A stretch of DNA of 23,470 bases, from contig JBCCQY010000147.1 in the NCBI GenBank assembly GCA_039208735.1, positions 1-23,470 of the forward strand, in the 5' to 3' direction. This document shows positions 7,188 to 16,807 of this stretch, one piece after another (position 1 is the first letter of the stretch; the number at the start of each line of letters is the position of its first letter). Source of the DNA: Myxococcota bacterium. Its GTDB lineage: Bacteria; Myxococcota_A; UBA796; GCA-2862545. Position numbers and translations under genes: made by a program. Below the pieces are notes generated by a model that saw only the letters and a program-made list of their open reading frames with translations, was not told the DNA's origin and searched no databases.

Positions 7188-7784
7188 CTAGGTTTTTCGA
7201 AGACCGTCCGCGGTTAGTGTCCAACCGGGAATCGCAAGGTCGTCCTGACTCCGCTTGGCGCGCGTGAGATCCGCTCTGCGCAAGAAGGCTCGATGGAGGT
7301 TGGCCCCTTCAAGGTTGGCCTCAACAAGGTTGGCGGCTTCCAGGTTCGCCTCGACAAGGTTGGCGCCTCTGAGGTTGGCTTGAAGGAAATTCGCCCGCTT
7401 GAGGTTGGCTCCGCGAAGATTGGCTTCGACAAGTTCGGAATAAGGAAGCTCTGCATCGACAAGCCACGCGCCCACGAGTTGGGCATGGGACAGGTTGACT
7501 CGTGCAAGAAGACCATTCTTGAGGTAGAAACCGTTCGCCACGATTCTGCAACCGTGCATGGCTAAAAGGGTGATGACAAACGCGCTCCGCTTTGCCGAAT
7601 CGGGCGTGCGATGATGGCATTGGTCTGCCAATTGCCGGGTCAGGTGGTCGATACGCTCCTGACGCTTGCGCGCTTCGGCCTGTCGTTTTCTCCAGGCGCG
7701 AATCCCATGCACGAAACCGATCGAGGTTGCCACGACGAGCCCCGCGGCGACCAACATCCAAACGGGCTCAACCACGAATTTCAT
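7188..7784 (-). CDS. Pentapeptide-repeat protein with N-terminal transmembrane helix
   Basis: A-N/D-L-x-x repeats (ANLRG ANLKR ANFLQ ANLRG ANLVE ANLEA ANLVE ANLEG ANLHR) after a hydrophobic N-terminus and a basic helical linker. Confidence 0.9.
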   Translation of the reverse strand: MKFVVEPVWMLVAAGLVVATSIGFVHGIRAWRKRQAEARKRQERIDHLTRQLADQCHHRTPDSAKRSAFVITLLAMHGCRIVANGFYLKNGLLARVNLSHAQLVGAWLVDAELPYSELVEANLRGANLKRANFLQANLRGANLVEANLEAANLVEANLEGANLHRAFLRRADLTRAKRSQDDLAIPGWTLTADGLRKT

Positions 7785-12314: not shown

Positions 12315-13160
12315 TTAAGAGCCCATTCGCGCCGGGGGCGTTCGCTGCTTCCGGAATCGTCCTGGGGATTGCCCCAATACCCTTTTGAACGCGCGCGAAA
12401 AGGCGTATTGGCTCGTATAGCCAACGTCCTGGGCGATGGACTCTAAGGAGCGGTGTGGGTCGGACACCAAAAGCCGCCCGGCCAGCGACATCCGCCATCG
12501 GCGAACGTAGGCCATGGGGCTTTCTCCCACACACTCCGTGAATCGCCGCGCAAAGAGGGACCGCGAAACCCCCGTCACCTTGGCCAGACGGTCCAGAGTC
12601 CAATTCGTATCGGGCGATCCGTGGATCGCTTCGAGCGCTAGCCCAGCAAGCGCGTCATCGAGACCACGAAGCCAGGAACTGCCGTGGCGTGCCTGTGTCG
12701 TCCCACGGAGGATGGCGACGAGGAGCGCATCGAGCAGACCAGCCCGCATCGGCTCGAAACCAGCCTCTGGCGTCCGCAGCTCCGACACGATGAGCGAGGT
12801 CAAGGGGCGAAGCGCCGAAACCCGTGCCACCGCTTCAGCTTCCAGGTGGATGATATCGGGTTCGCCTGCCCACAAGCTCGTGATGGGGCACCTCGAGCCC
12901 CCAATGACCCCCACGAGCAGGGTGGTTGAATCGGAGGCATCGATTTGGTGGGCCGCGCCGCGAACCAGCAATGCGACCTCGCCCGAGCCAAGGTCGAACC
13001 GCCTCTCTCCGACGCGAAGGTGGACAAAACCATCCACGACCAGCGTGAATACGACGCCCGCGACCGCCTCGCACTGCAGCGTGACCGGACCGTCGACGAG
13101 CTTCAATTCGGATGTCCAAGGGCGGGTCACCGAAATCCAGTCGGTCATCGGGCTGTTCAT
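12315..13160 (-). CDS. AraC-family transcriptional regulator (cupin N-domain plus HTH)
   Basis: GGAG precedes ATG 13160. WLRGLDD..ALEAIH..WTLDRLAKVTGVSRSLFARRF..VGESPMAYVRRWRM..IAQDVGYTSQYAFSRAFKR. Divergent from the NAD(P)H-binding gene. Confidence 0.93.
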   Translation of the reverse strand: MNSPMTDWISVTRPWTSELKLVDGPVTLQCEAVAGVVFTLVVDGFVHLRVGERRFDLGSGEVALLVRGAAHQIDASDSTTLLVGVIGGSRCPITSLWAGEPDIIHLEAEAVARVSALRPLTSLIVSELRTPEAGFEPMRAGLLDALLVAILRGTTQARHGSSWLRGLDDALAGLALEAIHGSPDTNWTLDRLAKVTGVSRSLFARRFTECVGESPMAYVRRWRMSLAGRLLVSDPHRSLESIAQDVGYTSQYAFSRAFKRVLGQSPGRFRKQRTPPARMGS

Positions 13161-13261
13161 GGCGCTCCGTGGAAGAACGGACAAAAATAATAGCAGATGT
13201 GACATGGAGCGTCCTTGCTCGCCACCCTAGGTTTCGATCGAAGCAAGACCATGGAGTCAGG

Positions 13262-13999
13262 ATGGAAGTGTCGAAACAGGACTCTGCGCGTCAGACGCTG
13301 GTCGTCTTTGGCGCCACAGGGACCACAGGCTCCCACGTCCTTCGGCAGGCCCTGGACGGAGGGATTTCGGTTCGCGCAGCGGTTCGGTCACCAAACAAGC
13401 TCCCCCCGAACCTCGTGGCTGATCAGCCGCAAGCGAAGCTTGGGCGAAATCAGAACAGCAGCAAGCAGAGCTTGCGCGAGTCTGATCGGCTCGAAGTCGC
13501 CACGGTGGACGTCACCGACACAAATGCCGTGGCACGGGCCATCCAAGGGGCCACGATGGTGTTCGCGGCTTTAGGCTACACGGGAGATCCCGGTCGCCCG
13601 GTGCTCCTCCCCTTCGTGCAAGCGGTAGTGCAAGCGATGCGCGAACACGGGGCTCGGCGGTTCGTTTATCAGGCGTCGGCCTTTAACTCAGAGCCCGGCC
13701 AGTCGAACCCGGTCCACATTCGCTATCTGCTTCGCCCCCTCGTGGGATCCATCGTCGGCGCACATCCCATCTGGAACGAGCATGACGCCGTCATTCGCTT
13801 CCTCGTTGAGGAGGTCAGCGACCTCGAGTGGACGGTCACCCGCCCAGGGATGTTGAGCGACGGACAAAGCAAGGGCGTGCTCGCGGTTCGAGCGACACCT
13901 GGTGGGGGTGTGACCAATCGAGATCTAGCCACCTTCTCCCTAAATGCGGTTCGAACAGGCGACCACGCACGGAGCTGCCCTTACCTCGGCTACCCCTGA
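13262..13999 (+). CDS. NAD(P)H-binding protein (atypical SDR, flavin reductase/BVR-B-like) carrying a 21-aa in-frame insertion
   Basis: GGAG at 13253, ATG 13262. LVVFGATGTTG Rossmann motif, VRSPNKL, DVTD..AV..AI.G, SDLEWTVTRPG, V...DLA.F. Confidence 0.92.
   Translation: MEVSKQDSARQTLVVFGATGTTGSHVLRQALDGGISVRAAVRSPNKLPPNLVADQPQAKLGRNQNSSKQSLRESDRLEVATVDVTDTNAVARAIQGATMVFAALGYTGDPGRPVLLPFVQAVVQAMREHGARRFVYQASAFNSEPGQSNPVHIRYLLRPLVGSIVGAHPIWNEHDAVIRFLVEEVSDLEWTVTRPGMLSDGQSKGVLAVRATPGGGVTNRDLATFSLNAVRTGDHARSCPYLGYP
13420..13488 (+). mobile_element. 63-bp double-hairpin element, copy A (intragenic, in frame), bounded by duplicated (C)TGATC
   Basis: CTGATC at 13419-13424 and again at 13482-13487 (63-bp period). 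63/69 identical to the reverse complement of 13997-14065. Confidence 0.8.
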
Positions 14000-14065
14000 T
14001 CACCCTCGCGCAAGCTTTGCTTGCTGCTGTTCTGATTTCGCGCAAGCTTCGCTTGCCGCTGATCA
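13997..14065 (-). mobile_element. 63-bp double-hairpin element, copy B (inverted, at the stop codon), bounded by duplicated TGATCA
   Basis: TGATCA at 13997-14002 and 14060-14065. The reverse complement reads TGATCA GCGGCAAGC-GAA-GCTTGCGCGA AATCAGAACA GCAGCAAGC-AAA-GCTTGCGCGA GGG TGATCA. Confidence 0.8.
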
Positions 14066-14150
14066 ACGCCATCCGATCAACCATGCCGTAAAGCGCAAGG
14101 GGGGGACGTTTGGCGGGATTCTCTATCGGTGGTCGGGTCGACTTGTTCGC

Positions 14151-16807
14151 TCAAGGGTCGACGTCGACGACCTCGAAGGCCGCGGGTCTCGTGGTGGAGA
14201 AGGGAGCGAAGACCACCATCGTCGGCGTCCCGTCCGTGTCGAGGAACGTTCCACTGCGGGCCGACTCGAGTACCGTCCCGTCGACGAGCAGCGACGCACG
14301 TGGGCCCCCCGACCATCTCCGCAGCACGAAGCACGGATGGTGAATGGGCGTCTCGTCGCTGCCCTCGAGTTCGAAGGACACGCCGGCCTCGGTGAGTACG
14401 AAGTCGTAGTCCCGCTGTCCGCTGTCGTAGCCTTCACTGGTCGCCCCCACCACGTTCACCGGCTCGGGGGCCGACCGCCAGGCATCGGCGAGGGGCACGA
14501 TGTCGCGAATGTCCTGGCTCGTGGTGCTCCGCTGGTTGGAGAACCCGTACAGCACGGACCTTCCGCCCCCCGCGGCCAGGGCAAAGTGGTTGACCCGCCC
14601 GTCCCCCTCGATGGCAAACCGACCGTCGGTCACCACCCGGCTGATGGGCCAGTGGTTCCATGGACCGGCGAAGGCATCCGAGGTGAATGGAGACTGTTCC
14701 TCGGCCCCCCACGGCCCCGTTCCTCCGAGCTCGAACACCTGGAAGGGCTTGTACTCGGATCGGACGTTGGCCATGAGCAGGGGCCCCTCACCGACCGGAA
14801 CCCCGTCGTCGCCCGTCCAGGTGAGCTCGATCACCTCACCGAATTCGTCGACGATGGAAGCGGCTTGCTCGTTGACGATGTCTCGCGGGGCGAAGCCTGG
14901 CGACGACAGCATTTGAAAGTCGCTCGATACGCCGTCCTCGCCCTCTGTCTCCTCCCAGTAAGTGGCGGTCCGAACGAGCGTGCCGTCGGGGTAGATGGTG
15001 TGGTACTCGTCGACGAAGTCGTTACCCGTGCACATCTCGAAGAACAGATCCGCCGTGGTGTAGCGCCAGTGGACGACCACGCGCGCATCGGTGTTCTCCA
15101 AAACGCGAACGTGGGTGAACCGGGCCTCCTTGTCCGACATGTGCTCACCGAGCGAGGGGTCCTCGGGTCCAGGAGGCGCCCGGTCTCCGCAGAAGATCTC
15201 GACGCTCTGGTCCGACATCCAGTGGTTGCGCTCGGTCACCATGTTGACGCCGTGGGAGGTCCCCCGCCAGTAGACGTAGCTCGTGGGCAGGTCGTCGAAC
15301 TTGACCACCACGTCCTCAACCCGGGAAGCGCGCCACTGGTTGTCCCACAAGTCGTGGTAAGTGAGCCGCTCGTGAATCGCACCGAATCGGTCCGCGACCC
15401 CAGGCTGCCCCGGGAGGACCCGCGCCTGGAGGTCAGGCGACCCCGTGACCCGAACCCCGGGGTCGAACGCATCGTGCACCGCGCGCACGTCGGGCTCGCT
15501 CAGCTTGTAGTCGTACAGCCGAACCTCGTCGACGAGGCCTTCGAGGCCGAGTCGAGACGGGTAGGTGTGAGAAGGCCGAACCGGCCCAGTCGGTAACACT
15601 GGGTCGGTGTTCAGCCCCATGACCAGCGGCGTGGCCGGCGTGACGATGGGAGCGGTGGCCAGCGTGGAGGCGACCGGCTCACCATCGACGTACAGTTCCA
15701 GGGAACCCTCACCGTAGGCCCCCACCAGGTGCGCCCACCGATAGAGCGTAAGACCACGAGGGGCGGTGACCACCGCGTCGCCGACCCGGAAGCGTGGCCG
15801 CCCCCGTTCATCGATCCCAAGCGCGTAGCCGTCATCCCCCGAGGTGTGCTCGACGAGGGGAGCCTCCGCAAAGGGGAACGCCCCGAGGGCGACCCAAGCA
15901 TCCACCGTCAGCTCATCGTCGAGGGTCGGCGCGTCGGCCCCCGCGACGCGGACCTCGGAGAAGTAGCCGTCGAACCCGAGCGCGGTCCCCGACACGCCGG
16001 ACTTCCAGAGGCTCTTGTGGCCGAGGATCGCTCCGTCGACCCCCTCAATCACGTCGTCCACCACATTCCCGAGCTGTTCGTCGAAGCGCCACCACCGAAC
16101 CGGGCCCCGCGCATCGGCCAGGACCGTGGGGTTCCCTAAGATGGGGCTCGGTGGGGTCAGGGTACCCAAGGTCGTCTCGACGTCGACGATACCGTCGGGG
16201 TGAGGCGGAACGTCTGGGTGATCGTGTTGCCGGGGTCGAGCCACGCTTCGATCGTCGCCGTGCCGGCATCGTGCTCGCGGCGCACCGACCCCGTGTCGTT
16301 GATGGTGTAGACCTCGTGGACCACATCGGTGGGCGAAAGCCGGTCGAGGTCCGGGAAATAGCGCCAGTGAACCACGATCTGTCGCGGCCCGGACTCCACG
16401 ATGCGCGCGTAACTGTAGCGATTGGTCCGATCAAAGTTGGCCTCGGCTGGACCATCCCCCGCGATGGTCGCGAGGTGCTCCACGGGGTATCGGATTCCGT
16501 CGACGACCCACACGGGACGAAAACTCGTCGCACGCGAGAACACGAGACTCGACCCTTCTCCGAACGCGACGACCACATCGGCGTAGTCGCCCGATACCTG
16601 CCTGGGTTCGTCCTCGAAGCTGGTTCGTGTGTAGAAGGCACCGAAATCGGTGTCTTCGGGATTCGGCTCGTCTGTCTCGAGTGGAGGGGTCACGTCGACG
16701 AGTCTAGGGTCGTCGCCTACGCAACCGAATCCGACGAGCGCGAGCAGACCGAGCCATGGGACACCGAGCCGCCAGCGCCGAGAGGGGTTGGACGCGACTT
16801 GCTGCAC
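14151..16807 (-). pseudogene. LamG (concanavalin A-like) domain lipoprotein of about 885 aa, split by a 1-nt frameshift at the G4 run 16197-16200
   Basis: GGAGG then GTG 16807; lipobox LVGFG-C. ORF 16157-16807 (..TQTFRLTP) joins ORF 14151-16244 (PDGIVDVE..) if one C is added to ACCCCGAC. LamG motifs WWRFDE, ALGFDG, WAHLVGAY..LYVDG, GLVDEVRLYDYKLS. Confidence 0.85.

Follow-up and report, generated by a model that had tools for sequence, protein, structure and literature searches.

The short hairpin modules described here seem to constitute a family bounded by TGATCA that has been recently multiplied, and their hairpins are likely kept for a putative mobilising enzyme which would read folded single-stranded DNA (ssDNA); the probability of this reading is estimated at about 0.55. 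The DNA analysed, called here the window, is the whole stretch of 23,470 nucleotides formed by positions 1-23,470 of the forward strand of contig JBCCQY010000147.1, from the assembly GCA_039208735.1 of Myxococcota bacterium, an uncultured, GC-rich, free-living myxobacterium. The element is rated here as being of the REP/MITE/RPE-like kind.

To our knowledge, the spread of most small palindromic repeats, a frequent kind of sequence, is unexplained outside the RAYT/REPIN and IS-derived cases. The family is a compact system for the search of an enzyme and for testing the recognition of ssDNA hairpins, as it offers two close genomes whose versions have diverged while remaining equivalent in structure, orthologs with clean empty sites, a sharp TGATCA boundary and DNA-type hairpin tips, with no Y1 transposase found.

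The elements of the window

Copy A is a two-unit element (13420..13488, forward strand) that runs from TGATCA to TGATCG and represents a net insertion of 63 nt. The hairpin of its first unit (13424..13447, forward strand) pairs positions 13426-13434 with 13438-13445 around a GAA loop (13435-13437); the bulge is located at 13428/13429 and the G at 13443 is a rare stem variant. The second hairpin (13456..13479, forward strand) is made of GC-a-GCAAGC and GCTTGC-GC stems; its loop, AGA, occupies 13467-13469, and the A at 13460 is bulged. The linker ATCAGA (13449..13454, forward strand) is a degenerate TGATCA junction, predicted to pair with the TCTGAT at 13481-13486 and thereby to enclose hairpin 2. 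This helix is 96.8% paired over 21 copies, and it varies so little that its covariation information is nil. The right end of the element, TCTGATCG (13481..13488, forward strand), contains the boundary, which is of the GATC/TGATCA type.

Copy B (13997..14065, reverse strand) has TGATCA at both ends and is placed in a convergent intergenic gap. The two copies form inverted arms of 68 nt (the B arm being 13998-14065) which are 93% complementary and 510 nt apart. The two 24-nt units reported in a preliminary description of this DNA are present at the positions given above, spaced by 32 nt, and the differences that it listed between the copies were all found: 13428 (C/G), 13443 (G/C), 13468 (G/A, in the middle of loop 2) and, at the right end, 13481, 13482 and 13488. 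The GCGAAGC announced at the tip of hairpin 1 lies at 13432-13438 and, in the register used in that description, C13428 pairs with G13443 in copy A and G with C in copy B, as it had stated.

Copy A is located inside a gene for an NAD(P)H-binding protein (13262..13999, forward strand; NmrA-like, Rossmann type), whose match to Pfam PF13460 (E 1.8e-28) is split into two stretches. The terminal TGATCA of copy B provides the TGA stop codon of this same gene (13997-13999), and copy B lies between this stop codon and that of the convergent downstream gene, which codes for a Laminin_G_3 domain protein (14151..16244, reverse strand). Upstream, the locus is limited by a divergent gene for an AraC-family regulator (12315..13205, reverse strand). 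Analysis of GC3 did not discriminate between frames. The position of copy A within a coding sequence had been missed in the preliminary description.

Size and distribution of the family

The basis of the preliminary description was limited to two copies, whereas a dispersed family was found here, which goes well beyond chance. A pattern search allowing up to two substitutions revealed 60 units at 40 places of the 9.4-Mb own genome, arranged as 21 single, 18 double and one triple element; blastn-short recovered about 22 full-length copies and nhmmer gave 40 matches at E<=0.01. The unit is 31-32 nt long and the double element 63 nt. Within one genome the copies are 90-97% alike, and between genomes only about 75%. 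The family was detected in 2 of 41 related genomes, one congener carrying the diverged form (about 75% identity), and a scan of public data gave one further record set only. Three of the five genomes of the genus are free of the element, and a related strain seen in a sequencing run is grouped with the two genomes that bear it. The two genomes are incomplete metagenome-assembled genomes (MAGs), 92.7% and about 82% complete.

The majority of copies either fall beyond long open frames or coincide with the end of a gene. The stop codon of a gene lies within the element at about 12 of the 40 places, a rough figure because it comes from a home-made codon score instead of a gene caller, and the verified gene of the window reaches only 0.14 on that score. 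At these places the element is in sense orientation with respect to the upstream gene in six cases, in antisense in five and in both in one.

Conservation and covariation of the stems

The changes per site in 20 copies of the own genome are 7/640 in stems, 15/120 in loops and 8/40 in bulges (Fisher p = 1.2e-11); loops and bulges vary approximately ten times as much as stems. Stems are also more conserved than linkers and ends (7/640 versus 19/580, p = 0.009). In the register of the family all seven stem changes break a pair, three of the broken pairs being A·C or C·A, and a formal count over 21 copies found 0 pairs changed on both sides.

The two genomes were counted separately for pairing and the combined alignment was set aside, because the bulges of the own genome put its 3' arms one column out of step with the congener, which makes the combined alignment unusable for pair counts. 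In the congener 98.4% of the cells are paired and four pairs (25 cells) have changed on both sides, whereas slid registers are only 20-50% paired. The covariation score of the congener is 0.168 versus 0.095 after shuffling and was reached by 0/500 shuffles, statistics that overstate covariation because the copies are related. G·T intermediates dominate the wobble cells of the congener (UG in 8/28 at one pair), and the strand signal of wobble intermediates is inconsistent over both genomes. Additional pairs of the stems differ between the genomes in a compensatory way: A-T in one corresponds to G-C in the other, and a bulge to C-G/T-A. Since the own genome does not covary, the structural argument depends on a single further genome and on compensated differences of which perhaps five are independent.

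The conserved secondary structure proposed from the two copies is supported, the stems of the own genome being conserved and the hairpins of the congener being kept via compensatory changes. Covariation over the collected copies, which had been suggested as a check, appears in the congener, where the true test lies, but not in the own genome. As for the compensatory swap at C13428/G13443 that had motivated the proposal, the pairs are indeed kept in the register then used, but the change amounts to a register shift at a freely variable bulge position. Position 13443 is C in all the other two-unit copies except C22:74091, which has the same G, keeps the bulge G and is uncompensated. C occupies the bulge in 4/42 hairpins, so the single compensatory change of the window is only suggestive on its own.

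Loops and folding

Tips of the type C-GNA-G are present in 73 of the 98 hairpins examined. Their frequencies in three of the four hairpin classes are 17/20, 27/29 and 29/29, with a variable middle base; the fourth class (unit 2 of the own genome) has AAA-type loops and GNA in 0/20. One source describes the GNA mini-hairpin as extraordinarily stable when made of DNA and considerably weaker as RNA, and places the motif at ssDNA replication-initiation sites and in phage N4 promoters (PMC13037366). The identification of the hairpin tip as a DNA mini-hairpin of the d(GCGAAGC) type agrees with these 73 tips.

Folding is no better for one strand than for the other, nor for DNA than for RNA, and two separate hairpins are the sole fold common to both genomes. 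The minimum-energy fold of copy B is an alternative, cross-paired hairpin. As RNA, folding energies are from -26 to -33 kcal/mol, with z from -2.7 to -3.7. The T-run that characterises an intrinsic terminator was not found after either copy on either strand, and a permissive Rfam scan of 12900-14600 gave no match to the element; it returned a weak and unrelated hit to CRISPR-DR20 (14458-14494, E 0.43).

TGATCA junctions and signs of recent insertion

The units and two other types of modules are joined at TGATCA irrespective of order and orientation, and neighbouring modules are invariably separated by a single TGATCA. The distances from one TGATCA to the next show peaks at 63 nt (16 cases), 31 nt (6) and 75-77 nt (14). 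TGATCA itself is not enriched genome-wide (1741 sites, observed/expected 1.08). The left junction is TGAT at 27/40 places and the right junction GATC at 29/40, preceded by T in 28 of these 29 and followed by A in 27. Terminal symmetry is limited to TGATCAG/CTGATCA. Both junctions carry GATC or TGATCA, which could represent a target duplication of the MITE type, a preferred target, a segment of the element itself or the core of a crossover.

At the orthologous sites of the congener both window copies are missing: its ortholog of the host gene does not contain copy A, and the 3' end of this ortholog reads TGACCA and is free of copy B. Excision or empty-site polymorphism was not observed in the run contigs, which end inside repeats, and no contig spans an empty site. 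A longer element with the same TGATCAG/CTGATCA ends, such as the autonomous IS from which a DDE-transposase-derived MITE would stem, was not found at the places examined, which are a non-exhaustive set.

Copies translated inside genes

Four copies, copy A included, are inserted into real genes without disturbing the reading frame, and the same hydrophilic frame is read in all of them; the verified host genes are restricted to the 63-nt dimer, which is read in one of its four open frames. Copy A is translated as DQPQAKLGRNQNSSKQSLRESD in the frame of the NAD(P)H-binding gene (NAD_binding_10), to which it adds about 21 aa, and the alignment of the congener ortholog shows a 20-aa gap. The other cases are an AAA_24 gene (exact 21-aa gap in the homolog of a congener), an SSF transporter (19-aa gap versus both paralog and ortholog) and a conserved protein without a Pfam family (+12 aa net). 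A fifth candidate, an open frame on contig C27, had no homolog among 25 relatives.

Copy A lies between strand 2 and strand 3 of its host protein, the model of which (pLDDT 91.4) is a confident Rossmann fold where the insert forms a low-confidence loop, mostly devoid of regular secondary structure. A comparable insert was found in 0/80 homologs of the window protein. These cases add a GC-rich free-living bacterium to those in which selfish repeats are translated within genes, and their visible insertion rule (63-nt dimer, one frame) makes them material for studying how proteins gain surface loops.

Search for a mobilising enzyme

The Y1/RAYT transposase family PF01797 was found in 0/5 genomes of the genus (E<=0.001; incomplete MAGs), while the controls gave matches in 6/14 genomes. 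The link to HUH transposases of the RAYT or IS200 type, advanced in the preliminary description, thus finds no counterpart in these five genomes. The link to integrons that it also raised is not supported, the RYYYAAC/GTTRRRY cores of attC sites being absent from the element and the copies being dispersed instead of forming one array. Y2_Tnp, IS110 DEDD and TnpB were discarded as candidates, as they occur whether or not a genome carries the element, and none adjoins its copies; the same applies to a DUF559 endonuclease, present in 4/5 genomes and adjoining no copy. DpnII-type enzymes were not found, and a Dam-class methyltransferase is uninformative because it is present in all five. Between direct copies on contig C47, the one pair examined for an autonomous partner, there are a hexapeptide transferase gene and other ordinary genes.

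Comparison with known repeat systems

The REP head is a GTAG-type motif, whereas the element is bounded by TGATCA. REP, BIME and REPIN sequences are short, GC-rich, imperfect palindromes with tens of dispersed copies at gene 3' ends and convergent gaps, single or in clusters and mosaics (PMC3184786, PMC3116915, PMC3337134), to which the element is similar. Its 60 units at 40 places are likewise dispersed and mainly extragenic palindromes, but RAYT is missing from the five genus genomes, several copies lie within coding sequences, and the units are direct tandems with 32/31-nt spacing, unlike the inverted REP pair of a REPIN.

The copies inside genes resemble Rickettsia palindromic elements (RPE) and other intragenic MITEs; an RPE is a palindromic repeat that enters unrelated genes in frame, so that their proteins gain an extra peptide which the fold can accommodate (PMC10969869). 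For the present element, four in-frame cases missing from orthologs were verified, and the one insert that was modelled is a low-confidence loop. The element differs from RPE in that it has 63 nt instead of about 150 bp, is mostly intergenic, is modular with TGATCA junctions and belongs to a GC-rich free-living host; in view of composition and host, sequence homology to the families RPE-1 to RPE-10 would not be expected. The mosaics recall those of neisserial RS modules and dRS3, described in PMC3898611 as arrays of short modules parted by a symmetric repeat that is an integration target; that repeat, however, has 20 bp, inverted ends of 6 bp and a phage integrase (PMC3898611), while the modules studied here have a bare 6-bp palindrome, hairpins and no linked integrase. 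The C-GNA-G tips with variable middle base, found in three of the four hairpin classes, are like d(GCGNAGC) mini-hairpins, but the stems that they cap are longer and bulged and belong to a repeat that is dispersed.

PATEs derived from IS200/IS605 and elements of the IS608 type have bulged hairpins near their ends, a short conserved left flank and a conserved right end. The element shares with them bulged hairpins that lie, on one strand, close to each of its ends, as well as the short conserved left flank and right end; nevertheless, TnpA (Y1) was not found, the hairpins of the element stand much nearer to its ends, and conservation extends to the right flank. A PATE inserts 3' of a fixed tetra- or pentanucleotide, does not duplicate it and has an arbitrary right flank; in the element, A follows GATC in 27/29 junctions.

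Proposed mechanism and alternative explanations

It is proposed that the modules move, inserting at TGATCA-like sites so that GATC or TGATCA would be regenerated at both junctions. Such insertion would explain the mosaics, the presence of both orientations, the location at stop codons (TGA-TCA) and the single frame of the in-gene copies (xxT-GAT-CAx). Hairpins with C-GNA-G tips would be the recognised form, on ssDNA, and a copy within a gene would persist only if its 63 nt give the protein one more soluble loop at the surface. A bolder version, put forward only tentatively, is that this mobility may be independent of RAYT: bulged ssDNA mini-hairpins capped by GNA would enter TGATCA sites, stack into mosaics and seed protein loops of 21 residues, and the enzyme might be a new hairpin-guided DNA inserter.

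A role as RNA, in which stem-loops at gene 3' ends would block exonucleases or modulate read-through as in REP/BIME, mobility being secondary, is rather unlikely. REPs have been reported to influence mRNA stability (PMC3184786), and this counts for such a role together with the stop codons inside the element, the position of copy B between convergent genes, the stability of the RNA folds and the frequency of G·U-type intermediates in the congener. However, the 3'-end bias would be automatic with a TGATCA target, since this contains a TGA stop codon; orientation is mixed, the U-run after the hairpins and any Rfam match are missing, the GNA triloop is a DNA-stable motif which is much weaker in RNA, and copies within coding regions would have no obvious use. 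Correction of quasi-palindromes by template switching is an established process, and complementary arms could have been maintained by it during replication, on one strand and without selection, as a by-product of mutation among young and related copies. This explanation, considered improbable, agrees with the lack of covariation in the own genome and with the haplotype blocks of the congener, where covarying stems are tied to loops (AGC-GAA-GCT versus AAC-GCA-GTT; CAGC-GAA-GCTG versus CGGC-GGA-GCCG), a linkage that suggests few events. It does not account for stems more conserved than linkers and ends, for bulges and a G·G mismatch that persist without being "corrected" or for a hairpin architecture that outlasts about 25% of divergence between genomes; moreover, the mechanism itself needs an ssDNA hairpin.

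According to another proposal, the element would be the substrate of an HUH Y1 enzyme (RAYT or IS200/IS605 TnpA, acting on REP/REPIN- or PATE-type sequences) and would insert 3' of TGAT without target duplication. Two direct bulged hairpins near both ends, a conserved TGAT on the left that is found again at the right end and loops of the ssDNA type fit with it, but it is quite improbable: PF01797 has no match in the genus while the controls are positive, the units are direct where a REPIN needs inverted ones, the A after the right GATC is not predicted by a mechanism with a target on the left only, and just 2 nt separate the foot of the hairpin from the place on the left where cleavage would occur. 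Still less probable is shuffling as double-stranded DNA at GATC/TGATCA, either through a site-specific recombination whose core would be a symmetric stretch of 6 bp or because GATC is cut and rejoined; the palindromes would then be sites for dimeric proteins instead of hairpins. Modules in any order and orientation with a single TGATCA between them, a nearly invariant GATC core with outer bases that vary on the flank side, and the Dam-class methyltransferase gene of all five genomes can be cited for it. Against it are the failure to find a DpnII-type enzyme and the lack of a recombinase linked to the elements. In addition, the stem variants that coexist keep complementarity instead of base identity, which argues for pairing over sequence readout.

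The repeat in the window and in the genome

The element is a repeat bounded by TGATCA and composed of two hairpin units. In copy A, on the forward strand, the units are located at 13424-13447 and 13456-13479 with a period of 32 nt, and each of them is a GC-rich stem closed by a 3-nt loop, with a single base left unpaired in its 5' arm. Copy B is the reverse complement at 13998-14065, and it differs from copy A at six positions (13428, 13443, 13468 and three at the right end). Units, spacing, stem/loop/bulge layout and differences are all as reported in the preliminary description, which was made from the sequence alone. The two copies constitute an inverted pair (arms of 68 nt, 93% complementary, 510 nt apart) around the last 510 nt of an NAD(P)H-binding gene (window 13420-14065). 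Recombination between them would invert the bracketed segment, and a duplex of great length could form in a read-through transcript.

The assembly to which the window belongs as contig C147 (own genome, G000: 9.40 Mb, 63.9% GC, 288 contigs, 92.7% complete) contains about 22 full-length copies according to blastn-short, and 40 matches at E<=0.01 were obtained with nhmmer using a profile from 20 copies. A pattern search allowing two substitutions located 60 units at 40 places: 21 single, 18 double and 1 triple.

Conservation of the hairpins

Changes from the consensus were counted in 20 two-unit copies of the own genome. The stems are avoided by substitutions (7 changes in 640 cells), compared with the loops (15/120), the bulge positions (8/40) and the linkers and ends (19/580), the difference being significant for stem versus loop plus bulge (Fisher p = 1.2e-11) and for stem versus linker and ends (p = 0.009). 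None of the seven stem changes is compensated in the family register; related to this, a formal count on 21 copies gave 97.4% of cells paired and no pair changed on both sides. The preliminary description had proposed a compensatory swap between 13428 and 13443. The 13443 C to G change is common to copy A and to the copy at C22:74091, where the bulge G is kept and a G·G mismatch results; with C at the bulge, copy A restores eight pairs by displacing the bulge by one base. Pairing is therefore regained in copy A, but through a shift of the bulge, and because C occupies that position in 4 of the 42 aligned hairpins the change is suggestive rather than significant.

Covariation is found among more diverged copies. 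In the one congener that carries the element (G002; 29 copies, 440 cells), hairpin 1 appears as GCCGCGAAC-GCA-GTTCGCGGC and GCTGCGAGC-GAA-GCTCGCAGC, with T·G intermediates, and hairpin 2 as CAGC-GAA-GCTG and CGGC-GGA-GCCG. Pairing is kept in 98.4% of the cells (20-50% in slid registers), four pairs and 25 cells are changed on both sides, and the covariation score (0.168, versus 0.095 in shuffles) is reached by none of 500 shuffles. All combinations of variants are seen at the three main covarying pairs; on the other hand, each stem variant is tightly linked to its own loop, so that the independent compensatory events are few. Between the two genomes, hairpin 1 shows compensatory exchanges (A-T versus G-C and G-C versus A-T), and the bulge of the own genome corresponds to a C-G/T-A pair. 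Substitutions are thus not distributed at random with respect to the stems, and the conserved secondary structure first proposed from two copies is upheld, now on a better foundation. Since the stems of the congener's two hairpins are unrelated to each other, the two genomes share only the fold with two separate hairpins, and not the cross-paired one that was predicted for copy B.

Modules and junctions

The distance from TGATC to TGATC is 63 nt in a double and 31 nt in a single unit. The inter-unit linker AATCAGAA is a degenerate outer junction (GTCTGATCA), so that a double appears to consist of two singles, joined where the junction has decayed, and to have been propagated as a whole since. 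Inspection of every copy with its flanks revealed two further repeat modules to which units are joined in either orientation, always via one TGATCA. One of the two, about 70 nt long, exceeds the hairpin units in abundance (43 near-full-length BLAST matches in the own genome; for instance C106:10022-10103, C39:18726-18807 and C18:28485-28566), is predicted to fold as nested hairpins and forms tandem arrays at contig ends (C107:17-249, C152:22501-22718 and C3:23-218); the other (26-28 nt) is related to the 3' part of the first.

TGATCA is not enriched in the own genome (1741 sites, observed/expected 1.08), and the spacing of neighbouring sites peaks at 63 nt (16 cases), 31 nt (6) and 75-77 nt (14). 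Over the 40 places, the left junction reads TGAT in 27, CGAT in four, AGAT in one and otherwise in eight. The right junction contains GATC in 29, preceded by T in 28 of these and followed by A in 27, by G in one (copy A) and by T in one. These counts identify GATC as the invariant core of the junction, the full palindrome being strongly preferred. GATC/TGATCA may represent a duplication, the element end or a crossover core, all of them compatible with the sequence. A TGATCA-GTC-TGATCA junction immediately left of a full copy (C169:11133-11147) resembles a unit's right-end motif from which the unit itself is missing, and may have been left behind by a deletion or an excision.

Distribution and age

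The element was detected in 2 of 41 related genomes, namely the own genome and G002, one of four congeners. The matches in G002 number at least 21; their identity is 73-77% and their period 62 nt, and up to three stand in one array. A public pattern scan (one genome per species, 185,579 species) returned 22 loci, all in one record set titled Myxococcales MAG and corresponding to the same copies as in G002. Copies are 90-97% identical within each genome and about 75% between the two, and both window copies are absent from the orthologous sites of the congener, which indicates that each lineage has recently multiplied its own version. In a microbial-mat metagenome (run X2), contigs cover window 13100-14064 with the gene about 90-95% identical and the element and flanks also present, so that this second study contains a close relative in which the repeat family also occurs.

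Copies inside genes and at gene ends

Copy A lies within the ORF of an NAD(P)H-binding Rossmann protein (13262-13999; PF13460, E 1.8e-28, in two stretches split by the element). The congener ortholog (65% identity) lacks 20 residues exactly at the insert, and none of 80 aligned homologs, drawn from a search of 1.84 billion representatives, has a comparable one (1-12 residues in those columns, versus 20 here). In an AlphaFold model built on the homolog alignment (pLDDT 91.4, pTM 0.88), residues 51-70, which are most of the insert, are without regular secondary structure between the strands at 36-41 and 77-81, with block pLDDT down to 53 and 60. Three other copies are likewise in-frame insertions in real genes: in an AAA_24 ATPase (exact 21-residue gap in the homolog of a congener), in a sodium:solute symporter (19-residue gap versus paralog and ortholog) and in a conserved protein without Pfam family (12 extra residues relative to the homologs, located in a variable loop). 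The last protein belongs to a multi-copy family (C190:14697-15968, C40:29041-29889 and homologs) present in 13 of 15 searched genomes of the same taxonomic family.

The four copies and a fifth putative open frame (C27), for which no homologs were found, are all read in one sense and frame (...DQRQAKLARNQNSSKQSLRESD...). Stops interrupt two of the element's six frames. Of the four open ones, the three not read in these copies would yield peptides that are Cys-rich or hydrophobic. Copy B is situated in the gap between two convergent genes, and the NAD(P)H-binding gene takes its stop codon TGA from the terminal TGATCA of this copy; the congener ortholog of that gene ends in TGACCA without element. 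By a rough codon score, a gene stop codon falls within the element at about 12 of the 40 places, in mixed orientation (6 sense, 5 antisense, 1 both). In one frame of TGATCA, TGA is a stop, so that such sites are found at gene ends; within genes, xxT-GAT-CAx or xTG-ATC-Axx are the only possible readings. A TGATCA target would account for the gene-end copies, for copy B at a stop codon and for the in-gene copies in one frame.

DNA or RNA form and mobilising enzyme

The functional form had been suggested to be folded ssDNA or RNA. The predicted folds of the two strands are equally good, both as DNA (-16.5 to -19.7 kcal/mol, z -2.9 to -4.3) and as RNA (-26 to -33 kcal/mol, z -2.7 to -3.7); the strand signal of the wobble intermediates is inconsistent. 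No U-run follows the hairpins in either window copy, and Rfam gave no match to the element. One feature favours DNA: C-GNA-G loops (loop plus closing pair, middle base free) are present in unit 1 of 17/20 copies in the own genome (0/20 in unit 2, with AAA-type loops) and, in the congener, in 27/29 for unit 1 and 29/29 for unit 2. The literature attributes to GCGNAGC mini-hairpins an extraordinary stability as DNA and a considerably lower one as RNA, and places them at priming sites on ssDNA and in promoters of phage N4 (PMC13037366; PMC3201870).

A link with HUH enzymes had also been proposed. It is not sustained, as PF01797 (HUH Y1) gave no match at E<=0.001 in the five genus genomes, with matches in control genomes. 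Y2, IS110, TnpB and DUF559 proteins were discarded as mobilisers, being present regardless of the element and not adjoining its copies. No DpnII-type enzyme was found in the genus genomes searched, and the places examined showed no larger element sharing the ends of the repeat. In its behaviour the family resembles REP/BIME and MITE-type repeats. The defining features of the RAYT/REPIN and IS200/IS605 systems, as far as tested, are lacking in it. Rickettsia palindromic elements are alike in the behaviour of in-gene copies (PMC10969869) and neisserial mosaic elements in the module-plus-separator layout (PMC3898611). Searches of open-access texts returned no account of repeats bounded by TGATCA and none of comparable elements in myxobacteria.

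All five genus genomes carry a gene for a Dam-class (D12) adenine methyltransferase (C40:40937-41629 in the own genome, syntenic places in G001-G004); as it occurs with or without the element, it is uninformative about the mobilising enzyme. If it methylates GATC, each module boundary would be a methylation site. GAGCTC is strongly depleted in the own genome (1130 observed versus 3316 expected, ratio 0.34), which would fit a restriction system of that specificity. Elsewhere in the window, a repeat with a 15-nt period (AAGGTTGGC-type) occurs eight times at 7282-7439, within long open frames, and looks like a pentapeptide-repeat coding region.
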